NCBI GenBank assembly: GCA_963771275.1 | Contig: CAVYSW010000006.1 | Location: 187,073 to 251,072, forward strand | Origin: an uncultured Gemmatimonadales bacterium | GTDB lineage: Bacteria > Gemmatimonadota > Gemmatimonadetes > Gemmatimonadales > GWC2-71-9 | DNA: 64,000 nt | Direction: 5' to 3' | In this document: in pieces, positions 51,493 through 58,584 of the stretch | Layout: the number at the start of each line of letters is the position of its first letter | Position numbering within the stretch: the first letter of the stretch is position 1 | Position numbers and translations under genes: made by a program | The notes under the pieces: generated by a model | What the model was told of the DNA's origin: nothing | Seen by the model: only the letters and a program-made list of their open reading frames with translations | Database searches by the model: none

Positions 51493-52200
51493 GTGCGCCT
51501 GCTCGCCGGCACGAGCGGCTTTGCCTACAAGGAGTGGAAGGGACCGTTCTACCCGGAGGACCTCCGGGACGACGCCATGCTCGGCTATTACGCCGGGCGC
51601 CTGCCGACCGTCGAGATCAACAACACGTTCTATCGCATGCCGCGCGAATCGGTCGTCGCGTCCTGGGCGAGCCAGACGCCTGACGGGTTCCGGTTCGTCC
51701 TCAAGGCGTCGCGTAAGATCACCCACTTCGGCAGACTGAAGAACGTCGAGGGCGAGCTGGAGTATTTCCTGCGCGTGTCGACGGTGCTCGGCCCAAAGCG
51801 CGGCCCGTCGCTGTTCCAGCTGCCGCCCACCATGCAGAAGGACGCCGCGCGGCTGCGCGATTTCGTCGCGCTGCTGCCCCGCGCCTGGCCGGCAGCATTC
51901 GAGTTCCGCCACGCGTCCTGGTTCGATGACGAGACGTACGGCATCCTGCACGCCCGGAACGCGGCGCTCTGCGTGGCAGACAAGGGAACCGACGAGGACG
52001 CCACTCCGCTGGTGGCGACCGCCGACTGGGGCTACGTGCGGCTCCGCGCCGAGACGTACGGCGAGGCAGACCTCGCGCGCTGGAGTGCGGCCCTGCGGGG
52101 CCAGCCCTGGCAGGAGGCGTACGTGTTTTTCAAGCATGAGGACGCGGGAGTCGGCGCGCAGCTGGCGCTGCGCCTGATGGAGACGGGACTCACCGGATAG
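51493..52200 (+). CDS. DUF72 (YecE-like) TIM-barrel protein
   Basis: GTSGFAYKEWKGPFYP, VEINNTFYRMP, KASRKITH, LFQLPP, EFRHASW, YVRLR. Confidence 0.92.
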   Translation: MRLLAGTSGFAYKEWKGPFYPEDLRDDAMLGYYAGRLPTVEINNTFYRMPRESVVASWASQTPDGFRFVLKASRKITHFGRLKNVEGELEYFLRVSTVLGPKRGPSLFQLPPTMQKDAARLRDFVALLPRAWPAAFEFRHASWFDDETYGILHARNAALCVADKGTDEDATPLVATADWGYVRLRAETYGEADLARWSAALRGQPWQEAYVFFKHEDAGVGAQLALRLMETGLTG

Positions 52201-52867
52201 CCCCCCCGGGTCCTCCCCACCGCGCCACCGCGGCCGCGATCTCGCCCAGCACGTCGGCCTCGGACCGTCCGGAGCGCTTCGGAACCCTGAAGGAGTGATC
52301 GGCGTCCTGCACCACGTGCAGCGTGGCGCGGGCGCCGAGCCGGTCGCACACCCGTTGCATCAGGTCGAGCCGCGCGAGCGCGTCGCGCGTGCCCTGCACG
52401 AACAGCTGCGGCAGGGTGACGCGGTCCAGGTGCGCCGCGCGGCTGTCCCCCGACCGCCCCGCGGCGTGCAAGGGAAAGCCGATGAACGCAAGCCCACGGA
52501 CCCCTTCGAGCCCGCCGTGCGCCGCCGCCTCCGAGGTCATCCGACCACCGTAGGACTTGCCGCCCGCAACGATGGGGAGGTCGGGTGCGGCCGCCTGCGC
52601 GGCCCCGAGTGCCGCCCGCACGGTGGCCTGCGCCACCGCCGGCGCATCGGGGCGGCGGGCGCCGCGCTCCATGTAGGGGAACTGGTAGCGCAGCGTGGCC
52701 AAGCCCCGTTCGGCGAGGGCGCGCGCCAAGCCTTCGAGAAACGGGTGCCGCATCCCCGCGCCGGCGCCGTGCGCCAGCACGAGCAGCAGCATCGCGTCGG
52801 GCGGCCGCAGCAGCAGGCCGCCAACGGCCCCCGCCGCGGATTCGATCGTGACTGGACGGGCCGTCAT
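52190..52867 (-). CDS. Alpha/beta hydrolase (Tex30/KANL3-like), coupled to ligD
   Basis: [36 protein letters not shown] overlap with the ligD stop. Confidence 0.87.
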
Positions 52868-55383
52868 CCCCGTGCGATCCGGGCCTGGAGCCTGCTCAAC
52901 GCCTGGGCCAGATCCGACTTCTCCTGCAGCACACCCGCGAGCGGGTCGGCCTTCCACCGGGCCACGCGGCGTGGCACGGTTTTGATCGTGAACTTCCGGA
53001 TGTCGAGCTTGGGCGTCACTTCCTGCCACGTGAGCGGGGTCGACACGGGAGCCCCCGGCAGGGGGCGGACGCAGTATGGCGCCACGAGGAGCTTGCCGCG
53101 ACCATTCTGCAGATAGTCGAGATAGACCTTCCCCTCCCGCTGCGCCGGCAGTCGGCGCACGGTCGCGATGGCGGGCAGCTGCGCCACGAGCACCCAGGCC
53201 AGCAGCTCGGCCAGCTGTCGGGCCTGCTCGTGTGTGCACGCGCGCCCCAGGGGGATCATCAGATGCAGGCCCGATGATCCGCTGGTCTTCACGAACACCG
53301 GGAGCGCGATCTCGTCGCACAGCCGGCGCGCCGCCCGGGCGATCTCGACGACGTGCGCGAACGGCGCGTCGCCGGGGTCCAAGTCGATGATGGTCCAGTC
53401 GGGGTGCTCGAGCGTGGCGATCCGGCTGGCCCACACGTGGATCGGGATGGTCCCCAGATTCGCCACGTACACCAGCGCGTCGGCCTCGTCGGCCACGAAG
53501 TAACGCACCTCGCGTTCCGCGTCGTCGCTGTAGACGGTCTCCGTGCGAATCCAGTCCGGGGCGAACACGGGCGCGTCCTTCTGGAAGAACGACTTCCCGT
53601 CGATCCCGTCGGGGAAGCGCGTCATCACGAGCGGCCGATCCTGGAGGTACGGCAGCATCCACGGGGCGATCGTCCGGTAGTACGCGATCAGATCGCCCTT
53701 GGTGTATCCCTCCGCCGGCCAGAACACCTTGGCGAGGTTGCTGAGCGCGAGGTCGGCGCGCGGCGCGCGTCCAGCCGGCGCGGCCGCGGGCGCGGGCTCG
53801 CCACCCGCGCGCTCGGGCATGACGCAGTCCTCGGGGGGCTTGTCGTCGCGGAACCGCAGGAACACCGGCTGGCGCAGCAGCCGTTCCTCGGTCAGCTCCT
53901 TGTAGCGCACCGCGCACACCAGCTGCGGCGCCACCCACGTGTGCTCTGGGCCCGCCGGGGCGTCCCGACAGGGCGGTTCGTCGCGGCGCATCTCCTCGAG
54001 CGCGCGTCGTACCGTATCCAGCTCCTCCGCCCGGAATCCCGACCCCACGCGTCCCACGTACACGAGCCCGCTCGCGTCGAACGCCGCGACGTGCAGCGCC
54101 CCGAACCCGTCGCGCGAGCCCTTGGGGGCGGTGAACCCCACCACCACGAAGTCGTCCACCAGGTCGGCGCGGACCTTGAGCCACTGGCCGGAGCGTCCGG
54201 CCCGGTACGGGGCGTCGGCCTGCTTGGCCACCATGCCCTCGAGACCGAGCCCCACAACCTGCTGGTAGAACTGCTCGCCCTTCTCGTCCACGTGATCCGC
54301 GTACTTGAGGGGCCCCGCTTCGGGGAGCAGCTCGCGGGCGAGCAGCTTGCGCTCGACGAGGGGCAGCTCGCGGAGATCGTGATCATCGAACGCCAGCAGG
54401 TCGAAGACGTACAGCGTGGCGGGCAGCTCGACGGCCGCGCGCTTCACGTCCGGCGCCCGGGTCAGGCGCGCGCGCTGTTGCAGGCGTTGGAAGCTCGGGA
54501 GGCCGGAGCGGTCGTGTACGACCACCTCGCCATCGAACAGGACGTGGCGGTACGGCAGGGCGCGCAGCGCGCGGGCCAGCTCGGGGAAGCTCGGCGTGAG
54601 GTCGTTGCCGTTCCGGGTGAGGAGCCGCCCCTCCCCCTGCCCGGCCGCCGCGAGCATGCGATAGCCGTCGTACTTGATCTCGAACAGCCAGCCCGCCCGC
54701 GAAAATGGCCGCTCCCGCGTCTCGGCGAGCATCAGCGTCACCTGCTCGGGCATGATCTGCCGCTGCGGCGCTCCCAGCTCCGCGATCCGTGCCCGCACCC
54801 GCTCGGCCCGGTCGCGGCCAGCCTTGAGATCCTCGACCACGAGACCCGACAGGACCGATCCCTCGGGGAACACGTCGCCGGGATCCCTCACGAGCGCATC
54901 GCGCTCCTTGATCAACAGCCACTCGCGCTCGGCCTTCTTGATCTTCACCAGGGTCCAGCGCCCGCGCAGCTTGTACCCCCGGAGGTCGAACAGCAGCTTG
55001 CCCTTCGCCCACCCGGCCACCGGATCCTCGAGCGGCACCCACTCGCCGCGGTCCCACACGATCACCGCGCCGGCGCCGTAGTTGCCCTCGGGGATGATGC
55101 CCTCGAAGTCGCCGTACTCGAGCGGGTGGTCCTCGACATGGACCGCGAGCCGCTTGTCCGCCGGGTTCGCCGACGGCCCCTTGGGCACGGCCCAGGAACG
55201 GAGCACACCCTCCATCTGCAGCCGGAGATCGAAGTGCAGGTGGCTCGCCAAGTGCTTGTGAACCACGAACAACCGACCTTCCCCACCGCCGACGACACCC
55301 GCCGGCTCCGGGGTCTCACCGAGCGAACGCTTTGCCCGGTAAGCACTTAGCCGCTCTCGAGGAGACTCACCCGTTGCGCTCAT
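52864..55383 (-). CDS. ligD: NHEJ DNA ligase D (phosphoesterase-ligase-polymerase)
   Basis: PE domain: HKHLASHLHFDLRL, SWAVPKGP; ligase: EIKYDGYR, EGMVAK; polymerase: LSNLAKVFWP, IDLDP, KTSGSSGLH, DYLQN. Confidence 0.96.
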   Translation of the reverse strand: MSATGESPRERLSAYRAKRSLGETPEPAGVVGGGEGRLFVVHKHLASHLHFDLRLQMEGVLRSWAVPKGPSANPADKRLAVHVEDHPLEYGDFEGIIPEGNYGAGAVIVWDRGEWVPLEDPVAGWAKGKLLFDLRGYKLRGRWTLVKIKKAEREWLLIKERDALVRDPGDVFPEGSVLSGLVVEDLKAGRDRAERVRARIAELGAPQRQIMPEQVTLMLAETRERPFSRAGWLFEIKYDGYRMLAAAGQGEGRLLTRNGNDLTPSFPELARALRALPYRHVLFDGEVVVHDRSGLPSFQRLQQRARLTRAPDVKRAAVELPATLYVFDLLAFDDHDLRELPLVERKLLARELLPEAGPLKYADHVDEKGEQFYQQVVGLGLEGMVAKQADAPYRAGRSGQWLKVRADLVDDFVVVGFTAPKGSRDGFGALHVAAFDASGLVYVGRVGSGFRAEELDTVRRALEEMRRDEPPCRDAPAGPEHTWVAPQLVCAVRYKELTEERLLRQPVFLRFRDDKPPEDCVMPERAGGEPAPAAAPAGRAPRADLALSNLAKVFWPAEGYTKGDLIAYYRTIAPWMLPYLQDRPLVMTRFPDGIDGKSFFQKDAPVFAPDWIRTETVYSDDAEREVRYFVADEADALVYVANLGTIPIHVWASRIATLEHPDWTIIDLDPGDAPFAHVVEIARAARRLCDEIALPVFVKTSGSSGLHLMIPLGRACTHEQARQLAELLAWVLVAQLPAIATVRRLPAQREGKVYLDYLQNGRGKLLVAPYCVRPLPGAPVSTPLTWQEVTPKLDIRKFTIKTVPRRVARWKADPLAGVLQEKSDLAQALSRLQARIARG

Positions 55384-55411
55384 GACCTGGAAATTTTATA
55401 GTAGCGCCCCT
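55384..55411. promoter_or_regulatory. Putative bidirectional promoter between ligD and ku
   Basis: 28-bp spacer with an AT-rich core; TATAGT (+, 55397-55402) and TAAAAT (-, 55398-55393), each 9 nt from its ATG. Confidence 0.6.
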
Positions 55412-56263
55412 ATGAGCGCACGCCCCATCGGTTCCGCCACCCTGTCCTTCGGGCTCGTCTCCGTGCCCATCCAGATGTACTCGTCCTCCGAGTCCAAGAC
55501 CGGGATCTCGTTCAACTGGATTCACAAGGACTGCGGCTCGCGCCTCAAGCAGCAGTACGTCTGCAAGCAGGACGGCAAGGTCGTCGAGCGCGAGGACATG
55601 GTCAAAGGGTACGAGTTCGCCAAGAACCAGTTCGTCCTGTTCACACCCGACGAGCTGAAAGCCCTCGAGGAACAGCGCACCGAGACGGTCGAGATCACCG
55701 AGTTCGTGCCGGCCGACCAAGTGGCCCGGATCTGGATCAGCAAGATCTACTACCTCGGACCAGACAAGGGAGGCGCCCGCGCCTATCGGCTGCTGAGCCG
55801 GGCGATGCGCGAGACCGGGCGCGCGGCCCTGGGCCGCTACTCGGCGCGCGGCAAGCAGTACCTCGTCCTGATCCGCCCCGAGGGCGACGGGCTTGCGATG
55901 GAGCAGCTGTACTACGCGGACGAGATTCGCGCGTTCTCGGAGGTGGCACTCGACGAGGGCGACGTCAAGCCCGAGGAGCTGAAGCTCGCGGTGCAGCTGA
56001 TCGAGCAGGCCGCCGCGACGCAGTTCGACCCCACGAAGTACGCGGACGACGTGCGCAAACGGATCCTCGCGCAGATCGAGCGCAAGGTGCAGGGACAGGA
56101 GATCACCGCGGCCCCGGAGGAGGAGCCCCAGGCGCAGATCCTCGACCTGATGGAGGCCCTCAAGAAGAGCCTCGCGCAGGCGGACGCGGCCGGCGCGAAG
56201 CCCGGCGAGACCGCGGCGCCGGGCGGCGCGCGGAAGCGCAAGGCAACGGGAGGGCGCTCCTAG
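55412..56263 (+). CDS. ku: NHEJ Ku protein
   Basis: SFGLVSVPI, MVKGYE, IYYLGPD, AYRLLSRAM, FDPTKYAD, ILDLMEALKKSL, basic tail. Confidence 0.95.
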   Translation: MSARPIGSATLSFGLVSVPIQMYSSSESKTGISFNWIHKDCGSRLKQQYVCKQDGKVVEREDMVKGYEFAKNQFVLFTPDELKALEEQRTETVEITEFVPADQVARIWISKIYYLGPDKGGARAYRLLSRAMRETGRAALGRYSARGKQYLVLIRPEGDGLAMEQLYYADEIRAFSEVALDEGDVKPEELKLAVQLIEQAAATQFDPTKYADDVRKRILAQIERKVQGQEITAAPEEEPQAQILDLMEALKKSLAQADAAGAKPGETAAPGGARKRKATGGRS

Positions 56264-56270
56264 GCCACCA

Positions 56271-57110
56271 ATGCAGGGCTTCGGAACCGCCGACGTCTCC
56301 AAGCTGCTTGGCCTGACGCCCGGCCAGATCCGGACGTTCGCGCGTGCCGGGTTCCTGCGGGCGGCGCGGGGGTCCCGCGGCGAATATCGCTTCTCGTTTC
56401 AGGACCTCGTGCTGCTGCGCGCCGCCAAGGAGCTGCACGCGGCGCGCGTCTCGTTGGCCCGCATCAACCGCGCGCTCCGCTGGCTGCACCGCCAGCTCCC
56501 CGCCGACCGCCCGCTGAGTGAGCTGCGCATTACGGCCGAGGGGGACCGCATCGTGGTGCGCGACGGGCGGACCGCCTGGTATCCCGAGTCCGGACAGCTC
56601 ACGCTGGACTTTCCCGTCTCCGAGCTCGCGACGCAGATCGCCCCGCTGCTGCTGGTGCGGGCGCGGAAGTCGCGCGGCGCGACCGAGCCGTTCAGCGCCG
56701 AGGACTGGTTCGACTTCGCCCTCGAGCTCGAGGTATCAGCCCCCGCCGAGGCGCGGGATGCGTACGGTCGCTGCCTCGAGCTCAATCCCGACTATGCCGA
56801 AGCGCTGGTGAACCTCGGCCGCCTGATGCAGGCGGAAGGGCGGGTGCACGAGGCGGAGGATCTGTACCGACGGGCACGGACGGCCAGACCCGATCTCGCG
56901 GTCGCGGCGTTCAATCTCGGCACCGTGCTCGACGAGCAGAAGCGCCCCATCGAGGCGATCGACGCCTACCACGCGGCGCTCGAGGCCGATCCCGACCTCG
57001 CGGACGCGCACTTCAACCTCGCGGCGCTGTACGAGCAGGTGGGCAACACCGTGGCGGTGTACCGCCATCGGCGGCGGCATCGGGAGCTGACGGGAAAGAA
57101 GGGGCGCTAA
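56271..57110 (+). CDS. MerR-like HTH + tetratricopeptide repeat protein
   Basis: N-terminal DVSKLLGLTPGQIRTFARAGFL...YRFSFQDLVLLR; ~3-4 TPRs (EALVNLG, AAFNLG, DAHFNLA); 7 bp after the ku stop. Confidence 0.85.
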   Translation: MQGFGTADVSKLLGLTPGQIRTFARAGFLRAARGSRGEYRFSFQDLVLLRAAKELHAARVSLARINRALRWLHRQLPADRPLSELRITAEGDRIVVRDGRTAWYPESGQLTLDFPVSELATQIAPLLLVRARKSRGATEPFSAEDWFDFALELEVSAPAEARDAYGRCLELNPDYAEALVNLGRLMQAEGRVHEAEDLYRRARTARPDLAVAAFNLGTVLDEQKRPIEAIDAYHAALEADPDLADAHFNLAALYEQVGNTVAVYRHRRRHRELTGKKGR

Positions 57111-57183
57111 GTGGCGGCGGGTCGCGAGGTTGCGCATCCCAGCCAGGCATCAGCGTGCATGAGGAGGTCGCTGACACCGGAAT

Positions 57184-58470
57184 TCACGGCCTCAACCCGC
57201 CGGGCAGTCGCGGCGAGCCGAGCAGGGCGCCGAACACCTCCCAGCGTCTCGCGACATCGTCCCCCGCGGTCCGCTCGACGTACGCGGCGACCAGGTCCTT
57301 CCCCAGGGTGTAGTTGATCACGTAGCTCCGGTAGCGGTCCATGAACCGTACGCGCTGCGCCGCGCGCTCCGGGCTCGTCATGGCATACGTCACGAGCCAG
57401 TCGCCCGCCTGGTCGGCGGTGATCTCGCCGTCCAGATAGCGCCGGGCCGCCTCGTTCCCCGTGTAGTCGAGCTGCGCCACGAGACCCTGGACGCGGTAGT
57501 ACCATTCCGCGCCCGCGGGATCGAGACCCGCCAGGGGGAACAGCACGTCGCGCTCGAACGCGACCCGCTGCGTATCGGGAAACGCCAGGTCGATGCCGTA
57601 GTTGGCACTGCCTTCGGCGATGAGTGACTGCGGGCTGAACAGCGGGTAGACCGTGTACTCCATCCAGCCGCGCTGCCGCACGAGCTTGTCCTCGAGCAGC
57701 GTGTTGTACACGTGATGCCCGGGGTAGCCCTCGTGGCAGGCGAGATCGATGGCGCGGTCGATGAAGATCGGCAGGTCCGTGTTCACCTGGATCCGGCTCA
57801 CCGCCTTCCCCTGGTACCAGTTGTAGCCGCTCCACGGCTGGTCCGTCACGTACTCGACCGTGAACCGCTCGCCGGAGGGCAGCTCGAGATGCCGCAGGGT
57901 GCGCGCCCGGCATTCGGCGATCGCCCGCCGGAAGACCGTATCGATCCGGTCCGCCGGGATGACGAACGCCTGCCGGAAATGCTCGTAGCGCTCCTGGACC
58001 GGGCCCTCGCCCGGCAGGGCGGCATCGATCTGCCGCAGCACCGCCTCGAACCGGCTGTCCGGGCTGATCGGGGCGACCGCGTCGTACAGCGCCCGCGACT
58101 CCTCATCGAACGAGAGCTGTTTCCCTTGGAGCAGCTCCACCATGGCGCGGACCGCGCGGAGCTGCGTGCGGAGATAGGCCTGCCGCAGGCGGCGCATCTC
58201 GTCCTTCGGCGCGCGGATCTCATCGAGCCGTGCGAGCAGCACGTCGGTACGTCCGTGCAGGGTGATCAGCGAGGCGCTGTCGGCCCGCGCCGAGTCACGC
58301 CAGTCCGCGGGACCGTAGTAGGCGTCGATGTAGTCGGGCTGGTGCTCGCCCACGGCGAGCACGAGCTTGACGTAGGCTTCGGCGATCTCGTTCACGGGCT
58401 TGTTGGATGCGCAGGCACTCGCCAGCGTCGCGAGGATCAGGAGGGCGGGAACGGCGACCTGGCGTCTCAT
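57184..58470 (-). CDS. Lipoprotein with DUF885-like zincin motif
   Basis: Lipobox ASAC; CHEGYPGHH, AEGSANYG, YVINYTLG. Confidence 0.75.
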   Translation of the reverse strand: MRRQVAVPALLILATLASACASNKPVNEIAEAYVKLVLAVGEHQPDYIDAYYGPADWRDSARADSASLITLHGRTDVLLARLDEIRAPKDEMRRLRQAYLRTQLRAVRAMVELLQGKQLSFDEESRALYDAVAPISPDSRFEAVLRQIDAALPGEGPVQERYEHFRQAFVIPADRIDTVFRRAIAECRARTLRHLELPSGERFTVEYVTDQPWSGYNWYQGKAVSRIQVNTDLPIFIDRAIDLACHEGYPGHHVYNTLLEDKLVRQRGWMEYTVYPLFSPQSLIAEGSANYGIDLAFPDTQRVAFERDVLFPLAGLDPAGAEWYYRVQGLVAQLDYTGNEAARRYLDGEITADQAGDWLVTYAMTSPERAAQRVRFMDRYRSYVINYTLGKDLVAAYVERTAGDDVARRWEVFGALLGSPRLPGGLRP

Positions 58471-58584
58471 GCCGAGAATGTACGTCGCGGCGCGCACCGC
58501 GACCATACGGGTTTCAGGGTAATTTCAGCACCTCTTTACCTGGCCGGCCTTATGGAGGACGTGGGAACGTCCCCGGAGGTCCCA

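Follow-up and report, generated by a model that had tools for sequence, protein, structure and literature searches.

The window, a 64,000-nucleotide stretch of DNA, carries directly after ku a gene, here called X, whose 279-residue product joins a MerR-type winged helix-turn-helix (wHTH) to a small beta subdomain and a TPR domain. With a probability of roughly 45%, X is considered a dedicated accessory protein of the Ku/LigD module that works in end joining as a DNA-binding adaptor coupled to Ku. Teaching and research alike treat bacterial NHEJ as a system of Ku and LigD. This "two-protein" form of end joining probably has a third player, for which X is the candidate. The gene retains its position behind ku in hundreds of bacteria and in at least five phyla, which makes it a concrete candidate for a missing helper or control layer of bacterial NHEJ.

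The ku locus and gene X

The features of the locus are collected in Table 1. The window ligD consists of three domains, namely phosphoesterase, ligase, and primase-polymerase, and their presence beside a Ku-family gene (PF02735) identifies a bacterial NHEJ locus. The start of ku was placed at M11 as the likely initiation codon because its relatives align from residue 10–11. On the other side of ligD, the start of the Abhydrolase_11 gene overlaps the ligD stop, as obtained from frame arithmetic. This hydrolase gene was found in 38 of 80 related loci, while the DUF72 gene was found in 56 of 80 and lay directly after X in 8 of these.

Table 1. Features of the ku–ligD–X region; coordinates are positions in the window and residues are those of the X protein unless stated otherwise.
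Feature	Coordinates	Strand	Basis and remarks
DUF72 gene, convergent on the hydrolase gene	51493..52200	+	PF01904, E 4.1e-59
Alpha/beta hydrolase gene (Abhydrolase_11), directly after ligD	52190..52867	-	PF20408, E 4.2e-49
ligD, divergent from ku	52864..55383	-	LigD_N 3.6e-42; DNA_ligase_A_M 1.3e-30; LigD_Prim-Pol 3e-87
Inferred ku promoter: TTGCGC (55374-55379), 17 bp, TATAGT (55397-55402)	55374..55402	+	Read from the sequence
ku	55412..56263	+	Pfam Ku, E 1.9e-50; likely start at the second ATG (M11 of the ORF opening at 55382)
Gene X, 279-aa MerR-wHTH / beta subdomain / TPR protein	56271..57110 (including stop)	+	ATG start; ORF and Pfam domains
MerR-type wHTH, residues 7-70	56289..56480	+	Pfam MerR_1, E 1.4e-10
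Small beta subdomain, residues ~84-115 (strands 86-90, 93-98, 101-103, 110-111)	56520..56615	+	AlphaFold2, 80 sequences
Conserved block W103-x-P-E-S-G-Q109-x-x-[LF]-D-F114, including QLTLDF (56595-56612)	56577..56612	+	Column counts, 80 diverse sequences
Linker helix, residues 116-135	56616..56675	+	DSSP on both models
TPR domain, eight helices (about four repeats), residues 143-274	56697..57092	+	Pfam TPR models; model pLDDT 93-98

The sequence-only reading had placed the start of X 7 bp past the ku stop, and the coordinates agree, with 7 bases between the TAG of ku (56261–56263) and the ATG of X. X is a real gene. Its N-terminus can be aligned with relatives from residue 1, and full-length relatives have 274–289 residues. 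X and Ku are probably translated from one mRNA.

Linkage to ku and distribution

The linkage between X and ku, which is the main finding, was counted in the best 80 of 565 related loci, which come from Gemmatimonadota, Acidobacteriota, Myxococcota, Pseudomonadota (Acidiferrobacterales), and Krumholzibacteriota. In 72 of these 80 loci, ku lies directly upstream of X on the same strand. Among the remaining eight, three have one gene in between, one has ku nearby on the opposite strand, two (from one MAG) have no ku, and two have too short a flank. The estimated gap from the ku stop to the X start has a median of 14 bp and is at most 131 bp in 72 of 76 loci, with some of the genes overlapping. 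Of the 75 related loci with ku and X on one strand, 67 show the divergent ligD/ku layout of the window. In the species-level genome set, the X family as a whole numbers more than 500 loci, and 327 clusters at 50% identity matched at E values up to 1e-30.

Moreover, the ku–X pair is retained in cultured Betaproteobacteria, where X is 36–42% identical, and 41 plasmid or chromid records carry X. On pBB2 of Cupriavidus necator N-1, ligD, ku, and X are co-directional and ku overlaps X by 4 bp. The same 4-bp overlap was found in Variovorax WDL1, in which ligD is not adjacent. With ligD co-directional in the one and not adjacent in the other, X therefore tracks ku rather than any promoter layout. The linkage of X to ku is upheld by the 72 of 80 loci and by the cultured Betaproteobacteria, and is stronger than could be seen from the sequence alone. 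The sequence-only reading was to be given up if orthologues proved to be unlinked to ku and the QLTLDF motif unconserved; since the linkage is kept and the motif is conserved, it is not overturned on these two counts.

Among 301 Gemmatimonadota genomes, X was found in 56 and Ku in 208, and a comparison of the two tables placed Ku in 54 of the 56 genomes with X. Approximately three quarters of the sampled Ku-bearing Gemmatimonadota genomes have no X. In the window's own genome, X and Ku are each single-copy. When the Ku proteins were arranged in a tree, X-linked and unlinked Ku interleaved, with 9 changes, at least 5 of which were forced. Consequently, Ku does not have to be specially adapted to X, and X can be dispensed with. 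X is an optional part of the module, and many Ku/LigD systems are without it.

Domain architecture of the X protein

A MerR-like HTH, a short beta region, and TPRs had been read from the translated sequence in this order, and both the Pfam matches and the AlphaFold models confirmed the arrangement. The MerR_1 score of X was 41.5 bits against a cut-off of 21.6, so the N-terminal domain is a MerR-type HTH. In VIA-align, the wHTH was closest to TnrA (4r22_B, Z 9.4, rmsd 2.5, 78 residues aligned), followed by RacA (5i41_B) and GlnR (7tec_A), both with Z 9.2. Across these three matches, which were the best for residues 1–78, the rmsd was 1.7–2.5. The same proteins were also the top PDB sequence matches (GlnR, E 4.2e-6; TnrA, E 4.2e-5; RacA, E 3.4e-4), and the top Foldseek match of the N-domain model was GlnR (4r4e_A, E 1.5e-3). 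CueR, NmlR, and TipAL gave Z 8.1–8.7, with the matches to CueR and NmlR spanning 74 to 84 aligned residues.

In TnrA, GlnR, and RacA, the chain either stops shortly after the wHTH or runs on into a coiled coil. In X, by contrast, the wHTH leads into the beta subdomain and the TPRs. Classical MerR activators such as MerR, CueR, and SoxR have a long antiparallel coiled-coil helix for dimerization immediately behind the wHTH. In X, after the helix at residues 62–75, the models show the beta subdomain (86–111) and then only the 20-residue linker helix. The C-terminal half is a TPR domain, and X has no small-molecule or metal effector domain of the kind found in classical MerR activators. The sequence-only reading had likened the N-terminal ~115 residues to Rv1830-type MerR-like regulators; the one related observation is that the Rv1828 C-terminal domain was matched modestly in structure (5ydc, Z 6.7, 84 residues), with a Z in the range that is commonly seen.

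In the case of the C-terminal half, several Pfam TPR models matched residues ~157–260, the best being TPR_2 (E 9.4e-16). TPR_2 (57 bits), TPR_1 (56.1), and TPR_17 (56.0) all scored above their cut-offs, which places X among the TPR proteins. The rmsd to consensus TPR structures was 1.5–2.3, and the Foldseek and profile matches were to consensus TPR and to the TPR of OGT. For full-length X, the fold search with the model and the PDB profile search both returned TPR proteins only, and a search of the ESM Atlas matched only unnamed or "TPR/MerR" clusters. The basic tail that had been pointed out (RHRRRHRELTGKKGR) is present in the window, but the K/R-rich end is limited to a close clade. The family consensus at this position, RHLxxYRxLT, belongs to the final helix of the TPR domain.

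In the Betaproteobacterial relatives of X, the recognition helix does not retain its two near-invariant arginines, R21 and R25, and the MerR_1 score is slightly below the cut-off. Because of both features, DNA binding may not be common to the whole X family.

Possible role of X in end joining

From the observed domain make-up, conservation, and gene linkage of X, we infer DNA binding, a partner protein, and an effect on repair. Duplex DNA would be held by the wHTH, and the four TPRs would grip an extended peptide of a partner, for which the candidates are the C-terminal arm of Ku, LigD, and the DUF72 and hydrolase proteins encoded at the locus. The invariant beta subdomain (W..SGQ..DF) could mediate self-association or a second contact. 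X would in this manner act as an adaptor that tethers repair proteins to DNA beside the break. Of the two roles put forward in the sequence-only reading, a scaffold between DNA and Ku/LigD is thus the favored one.

Several observations argue for such a Ku-coupled adaptor. The gene stays directly behind ku across most of the related loci and at low sequence identity in the Betaproteobacteria, nearly all X-bearing Gemmatimonadota genomes also have Ku, and the region upstream of ku is similar with and without X and shows no sign of a dedicated operator, as described below. The wHTH is nearest to the minimal MerR forms, and one of them, RacA, is a chromosome-anchoring protein and not a regulator according to its PDB title. 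A tie to DUF72 is suggested by the frequency of this gene in the loci and by a 516-aa relative (P0271), in which X is fused to DUF72. Longer forms of X (490–2000 aa, matched by query residues 1–140) gave two matches, one of which is this fusion. The fusion rests on one sequence, for which an assembly or frameshift artefact is possible.

On the other side, the great majority of MerR-type HTH proteins are transcription factors, and an HTH followed by TPRs is a known layout of regulators. The RRNPP regulators (PlcR, Rap, and NprR) resemble X in having an N-terminal HTH and a C-terminal TPR domain able to bind peptide. They have an XRE-type HTH and a larger TPR domain, and they are tied to signalling-peptide genes rather than to ku. 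The adaptor reading is also weakened by the absence of X from about three quarters of Ku-bearing Gemmatimonadota with the interleaving of the two kinds of Ku, by the single and possibly artefactual DUF72 fusion, and by the changes in the Betaproteobacterial wHTH. When X was modeled together with a Ku dimer, without controls and from alignments of 29 rows each (the window sequence plus those of 28 among the 80 loci), the score was 0.00, which is evidence neither way.

Compared with two-component bacterial NHEJ (a Ku homodimer and a multidomain LigD, as in Mycobacterium, Bacillus subtilis, and Pseudomonas), the window likewise has one ku and one three-domain ligD; unlike it, the window adds a third gene after ku, with the hydrolase and DUF72 genes nearby. 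Tentatively, and with less assurance than for X itself, end joining in many lineages might be the work of a three-to-five-protein module of LigD, Ku, and X, often with the Abhydrolase_11 hydrolase and the DUF72 TIM-barrel. Within it, X would be a Ku-coupled DNA-binding scaffold with an organizing role like that of XRCC4, XLF, and PAXX. The analogy to these non-catalytic companions of Ku and ligase concerns the role only, as no likeness in sequence or fold was seen and X is made of a wHTH and TPRs. The portions of the bacterial NHEJ literature that were covered gave no link to MerR or TPR proteins, X, the hydrolase, or DUF72; in the main text of PMC7719229, the terms MerR, tetratricopeptide, and TPR each had 0 occurrences. 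A literature search on DUF72/YecE function gave nothing useful.

The role of X is testable, since cultured and non-pathogenic hosts such as Cupriavidus necator N-1 and Variovorax carry the ku–X pair. If X alters how efficiently or how faithfully ends are joined, it would be relevant to mutagenic repair in soil bacteria and to genome-editing tools based on NHEJ.

Promoter region of ku and the possibility of autoregulation

The foremost alternative, modeled on HspR, is that X, encoded last in its operon, is a transcription factor that controls the ku (and ligD) promoter and with it its own expression. The MerR-type HTH would sit near the promoter and the TPRs would respond to a protein signal, such as free Ku acting as a co-repressor, with breaks that titrate Ku raising ku/ligD expression. 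We regard this explanation as doubtful, though it has a number of points in its favor. The MerR_1 score of X is above the cut-off, X is the last gene of the ku operon in most loci, and its dispensability and repeated loss are as expected of an optional control layer. Moreover, the best NCBIfam match on the HTH was HspR (NF047375, E 1.5e-5, residues 8–71). However, this equivalog model gave 24.9 bits on X, far below its cut-off of 105, and X has a beta subdomain and TPRs that are absent from HspR. The likeness lies in a MerR-type HTH protein being encoded last in the operon that holds its presumed partner. According to PMC2687793, HspR is encoded in the dnaK operon, binds its promoter, and is autoregulatory with DnaK as corepressor.

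The TATAGT of the inferred ku promoter, lying 9 nt ahead of the ku ATG, would imply a transcript with almost no leader. A TAnnnT hexamer ending 5–13 nt before the ku ATG was found in 35 of 70 loci with X and in 14 of 20 without X, compared with 7 of 70 and 0 of 20, respectively, in a control shifted by 30 nt. The promoter scan of 55250–57350 returned 0 promoter-like sites, and the inferred -35 element matches at 3 of 6 positions only. In the terminator scan of the same interval, one terminator-like site was obtained, inside the X coding region and at chance level.

Promoters activated by MerR proteins have an over-long spacer of 19–20 bp that holds a dyad operator. The spacer of the inferred ku promoter is 17 bp, and no dyad is shared among the 70 loci. 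In a crude operator search for inverted repeats (arms of at least 6, at most 1 mismatch, loop up to 14), no X-specific repeat was found at a shared position upstream of ku in the 70 loci with X, the places of the repeats being variable. The recurring repeats fell inside the 5' coding region of ligD, where the sequence is similar in loci without X, and the same scan found no HAIR-like repeat upstream of ku.

These results lend no support to the earlier proposal that X regulates the divergent ligD/ku promoter. In 20 ku loci without X, the promoter region looks the same, and the -10-like hexamer occurs with and without X. The inferred spacer is of 17 bp, no X-specific inverted repeat was seen, and in Cupriavidus ligD is co-directional. 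X keeps its place behind ku even where ligD points the same way or is not a neighbor, and a fusion to DUF72 would be unusual in a repressor.

A further explanation is that X acts outside end joining, for example, by regulating genes far from its locus, and merely shares with ku a module that is mobile or often transferred. One Acidobacteriota MAG has two X copies (L074 and L075) that lie next to dehydrogenase genes and have no ku within 6 kb, and many relatives of X are on plasmids or chromids. Nevertheless, the adjacency to ku in 72 of 80 loci, over five phyla and a large divergence, would be hard to keep without a shared function, which makes this explanation unlikely.

Conserved block and the QLTLDF motif

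QLTLDF corresponds to residues 109–114 of X, in agreement with the coordinates first assigned to it. The conservation of the surrounding block is well above chance expectation. In 80 diverse X sequences, Q109 is present in 80, G108 in 76, W103 in 75, and F114 in 70, with Leu in the other 10. W103, G108, Q109, and F114 are also retained in the X proteins of Cupriavidus and Variovorax. The residues most often found at position 110 are V (17), A (16), L (15), F (10), T (8), I (4), G (3), and R (3), and the Cupriavidus equivalent of the motif is QRLIEF, with Arg at this position.

AlphaFold2 with 80 sequences gave pLDDT values of 90, 91, and 88 for the blocks within residues 81–110, the last of these for 101–110, and 67 for residues 111–120. 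With 30 sequences, residues 101–108 were at a pLDDT under 50. The deeper-alignment model is consistent with the caveat raised at the outset that the motif may be a structural strand.

The sequence-only reading had proposed, as one of its options, that QLTLDF is a peptide that binds the replication sliding clamp and would couple Ku/LigD to it. In the window, the motif fits the Q-L-x-L-x-[LF] hexapeptide of clamp-binding peptides (Pol IV, Hda, and others), Q109 never varies, hydrophobic residues fill positions 112 and 114 in almost every one of the 80 relatives, and residues 101–108 are of low confidence in the shallow-alignment model. Several features argue against a clamp peptide. The second position is Leu in just 15 of 80 relatives and A, T, G, or R in 30, and the conserved block starts six residues earlier, with W-x-P-E-S-G, outside any clamp motif. 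Residues 101–110 are modeled as strands of a small sheet, and the motif is internal, between two folded parts rather than in a terminal tail. By a rough estimate, a loose pattern of Q-hydrophobic-x-hydrophobic-x-hydrophobic occurs by chance in about one in seven proteins of the size of X. Since position 110 is variable and most of the block is modeled inside a folded domain, the coupling to the clamp is the least likely of the explanations and very improbable.

For the beta subdomain itself, no convincing solved counterpart was obtained, as the fold searches with the N-domain convincingly matched the wHTH only. In one relative (P0063), the beta subdomain is duplicated jointly with the preceding helix.

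Conserved linkage of gene X to ku

Gene X, located directly after ku, was compared with its relatives in other genomes (loci numbered L). In the window, its start codon lies seven bases beyond the ku stop (TAG), as the sequence-only reading had stated. The ku frame was counted from its second ATG, the point where Ku relatives begin aligning. A pattern scan with one genome per species yielded 599 candidate stretches, 565 of which encoded an X relative, and the best 80 of these 565 loci were retained and searched by tblastn with the Ku, LigD, and X of the window. The proposed linkage to ku was borne out: ku immediately preceded X in the same orientation in 72 of the best 80 loci. One additional gene was between them in three Myxococcota loci (L045, L068, and L078), ku was approximately 1.5 kb off on the opposite strand in one (L031), two from one Acidobacteriota MAG (L074 and L075) had no ku within the locus and dehydrogenases as neighbours, and two had upstream flanks of <900 bp. 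The intervening gene was about 1.8–2.2 kb long (L045, 4195–6000; L068, 4206–6000; L078, 3563–5797). The gap from the ku stop to the X start had an estimated median of 14 bp and was ≤131 bp in 72 of 76 values, which are approximate because the X start was taken from alignment and a few placed starts were not start codons; the value of 891 for L043 was a script artefact. Of the 75 loci with ku and X on the same strand, 67 had ligD and ku in divergent orientation.

Features of the window (positions of the whole stretch)
Feature	Position	Strand	Remark
DUF72 (PF01904) gene	51493–52200	+	convergent on hydrolase gene; E 4.1e-59
Abhydrolase_11 (PF20408) gene	~52190–52867	-	directly after ligD; E 4.2e-49
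ligD	52864–55383	-	LigD_N, ligase, and primase-polymerase domains; divergent from ku
Putative -35 of ku, TTGCGC	55374–55379		
9-bp inverted repeat	55375–55383 / 55412–55420		perfect
Putative -10 of ku, TATAGT	55397–55402		
ku	ATG 55412; stop 56261–56263	+	Pfam Ku, E 1.9e-50
Gene X	56271–57110	+	open frame of 279 codons, ATG start
QLTLDF codons of X	56595–56612	+	residues 109–114
440-aa frame after X	57184–58506	-	convergent with X; without Pfam match

The X loci belonged to Gemmatimonadota, Acidobacteriota, Myxococcota, Acidiferrobacterales (Pseudomonadota), and Krumholzibacteriota. Moreover, 41 plasmid records of Burkholderia, Cupriavidus, Paraburkholderia, Caballeronia, and Variovorax carried X by tblastn (36–42% identity, full length), showing that the family is present in cultured bacteria too. 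The annotation of Cupriavidus necator N-1 pBB2 gives ligD, 'Ku protein', and 'tetratricopeptide repeat protein' in this order and in one orientation; the latter two genes, ku and X, share 4 bp. Variovorax WDL1 likewise has a 4-bp overlap of ku and X, but ligD is not next to them, and a gene for an EEP-family nuclease is oriented convergently. Across distant phyla, X follows ku immediately, closely spaced or overlapping. The pBB2 cluster (L103, 1–6804) is neighboured by genes for an SOS-response-associated peptidase, a zinc-finger protein, and an error-prone DNA polymerase, with which it forms a damage-tolerance island.

Distribution of X

X and ku are each present as a single copy in the genome of the window (3.86 Mb, 96.7% complete). 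Among 301 Gemmatimonadota genomes, X was counted in 56 (profile of residues 1–140, E up to 1e-10) and Ku (PF02735) in 208, tallies that take in genomes flagged as unpublished (G181 of the 56; G156, G057, G181, and G096 of the 208). On comparing the tables by eye, Ku was also found in 54 of the 56 X genomes, the others being G166 and G296, the latter with a partial X match; X and ku were neighbours wherever both coordinates were given (e.g., G039, G190, G262, and G288). Twenty ku loci were taken from genomes without X, chosen from the upper part of the listing and hence not at random among the ~154 such genomes; they likewise had ligD divergent or adjacent, and none contained X. A quick maximum-likelihood tree was prepared from 95 Ku proteins: that of the window, those of the 20 loci without X, and 74 from the best 80 loci. 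Left out of the 80 were four without ku (L017, L069, L074, and L075), L031 with ku on the opposite strand, and L028, where ku was truncated. The presence of X changed nine times on this tree, with at least five changes forced by well-supported branches. Because of these counts and the Ku tree, it was concluded that X is an optional partner, repeatedly lost or gained, and that the Ku accompanying it is not a separate subfamily.

Domains and conserved block of X

X is a conserved protein that combines a MerR-type winged helix-turn-helix (wHTH) with a small, invariant beta module and a TPR domain. The MerR-like HTH and TPRs read earlier from the sequence were confirmed by Pfam, with MerR_1 on residues 7–70 (E 1.4e-10) and TPR models covering residues ~157–260. 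No NCBIfam model matched X at its cut-off; on the HTH, HspR scored highest, with 24.9 bits against a required 105. The fold was modelled twice with AlphaFold2. Whole X, modelled with 30 sequences (the window and 29 of 120 listed homologues), had a mean pLDDT of 83, with a very confident TPR half and values <50 at residues 101–108. Residues 1–140, modelled with 80 sequences (the window and 79 of 150 listed representatives, picked for ≥255 aa and a match beginning close to the N-terminus), reached 88.2, with 88 at residues 101–110 and 67 at 111–120; strands were placed at 86–90, 93–98, 101–103, and 110–111 and a helix at 116–135. In structure searches with this N-domain model, the wHTH was the sole convincing match (TnrA, Z 9.4; RacA, 9.2; GlnR, 9.2; CueR, NmlR, and TipAL, 8.1–8.7). 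GlnR was also best in Foldseek (E 1.5e-3), which gave no match at 1e-3. Matches reaching the beta part scored in the range that the search tool rates as common (Rv2018, 5af3, Z 7.4; C-terminal domain of Rv1828, 5ydc, Z 6.7).

QLTLDF, whose position in the earlier reading was correct, is the C-terminal end of a longer conserved block, for which columns were counted in 80 diverse X sequences.

Residues of the conserved block in 80 X sequences
X position	Residues (sequences)
103	W 75, F 4
105	P 68
106	E 52, D 12
107	S 68, T 10
108	G 76
109	Q 80
110	V 17, A 16, L 15, F 10, T 8, I 4, G 3, R 3
112	L 39, F 34, I 7
113	D 55, E 9, N 9
114	F 70, L 10

The block reads W-L-V-E-S-G-Q-R-L-I-E-F in Cupriavidus necator and W-E-A-A-S-G-Q-L-L-M-D-F in Variovorax. 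"QL" defines the consensus of peptides that bind the sliding clamp (DnaN). The block is strongly conserved, whereas the clamp-type "QL" within it is not; of the QLxLDF conservation to be checked, Gln109 was invariant, but Leu occurred at position 110 in 15 of 80 sequences only. Since "QL" is not kept and conservation extends six residues N-terminal of QLTLDF, a structural strand of the domain, previously a caveat, is the better reading, and a link of X to the clamp through QLTLDF is very unlikely.

In the relative P0063 (342 aa), a unit of 65 residues comprising MerR helix 4 and the beta subdomain is duplicated in tandem (alignment columns ~131–195), including a second W-x-P-E-S-G-Q copy, which shows that helix 4 and the beta part are a separable module. 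In the Betaproteobacterial relatives, the near-invariant recognition-helix arginines R21 and R25 are replaced (Cupriavidus and Variovorax aligned with the window) and MerR_1 falls just below cut-off, yet the W..SGQ..F block is retained. The beta module may be more essential to X than the HTH.

The ligD–ku promoter region

The ligD and ku start codons are 28 bases apart. Between the putative -35 and -10 of ku lies a 17-bp spacer, the ATG follows nine bases after the -10, and the ku mRNA looks nearly leaderless. The promoter is called putative because the promoter scan reported none at ku; the -35 matches at 3 of 6 positions only. Among loci with X, 35 of 70 had a TAnnnT hexamer ending 5–13 nt before the ku ATG, as did 14 of 20 without X; when the position was shifted by 30 nt as a control, the counts were 7 of 70 and 0 of 20. 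This conservation supports the putative promoter.

The sequence-only reading had offered X as either a regulator of the divergent ligD/ku promoter or a scaffold, and the first of these proposals gained no support from the promoter region. A crude scan found no shared inverted repeat upstream of ku specific to X loci. The like architecture with and without X, the normal 17-bp spacer, and the lack of a shared X-specific repeat speak against a classical MerR-type activator here, and they lend no support to a dedicated operator for X. A repressor site lying across the core promoter may have escaped so crude a scan.

A TG-extended -10 lies immediately against the start codon of ligD in loci of Thermoanaerobaculia (e.g., L060, L066, and L070). 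In the window, ligD and ku both open with ATGAGCGCA (Met-Ser-Ala) on opposite strands, and these shared starts form the inverted repeat, whose arms enclose an AT-rich core containing the -10-like TATAGT. Elsewhere the repeat is kept only partly (~7 of 9 bp in L001, L002, and L009 by eye).

Hydrolase and DUF72 companions

The hydrolase ATG overlaps the ligD stop by frame arithmetic. Among the best 80 X loci, hydrolase relatives followed ligD in 38 and DUF72 relatives occurred in 56; in eight of the latter, the DUF72 gene came next after X in the same orientation (L032, L045, L046, L053, L067, L068, L073, and L078). In the 20 ku loci without X, which had shorter flanks, DUF72 was beside ku in nine and the hydrolase in six. 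An X–DUF72 fusion of 516 aa, P0271, was represented by one sequence only, from a contig of 550 kb. No paper on DUF72 function was found in the literature.

Probable role of X

X is assembled from parts of known kinds, and its proteins are named only 'tetratricopeptide repeat protein' in databases. In the text available to a full-text search, no paper tied such a MerR/TPR protein to bacterial end joining (NHEJ), and the main text of a comparative NHEJ study, as available, contains none of MerR, TPR, and tetratricopeptide (PMC7719229). The conserved ku–X module appears undescribed.

X is tentatively considered an accessory adaptor of the Ku/LigD machinery (probability about 0.45), in which the wHTH would bind DNA and the TPR would bind a partner's peptide. 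This reading was placed first because X tracks ku and not a promoter layout, because X is fused to or beside another protein of the locus, and because X loci show no regulatory site of their own. A serious, if less probable, rival is an HspR-like autoregulator, for which HspR sets the established precedent: the gene of this MerR-type protein belongs to the operon that HspR represses, and the main operon product serves as corepressor (PMC2687793). The adaptor and autoregulator readings overlap, as both predict contact with Ku. A function unrelated to end joining is improbable.

The 440-aa frame convergent with X was present only in the nearest relatives, L002 and L024.
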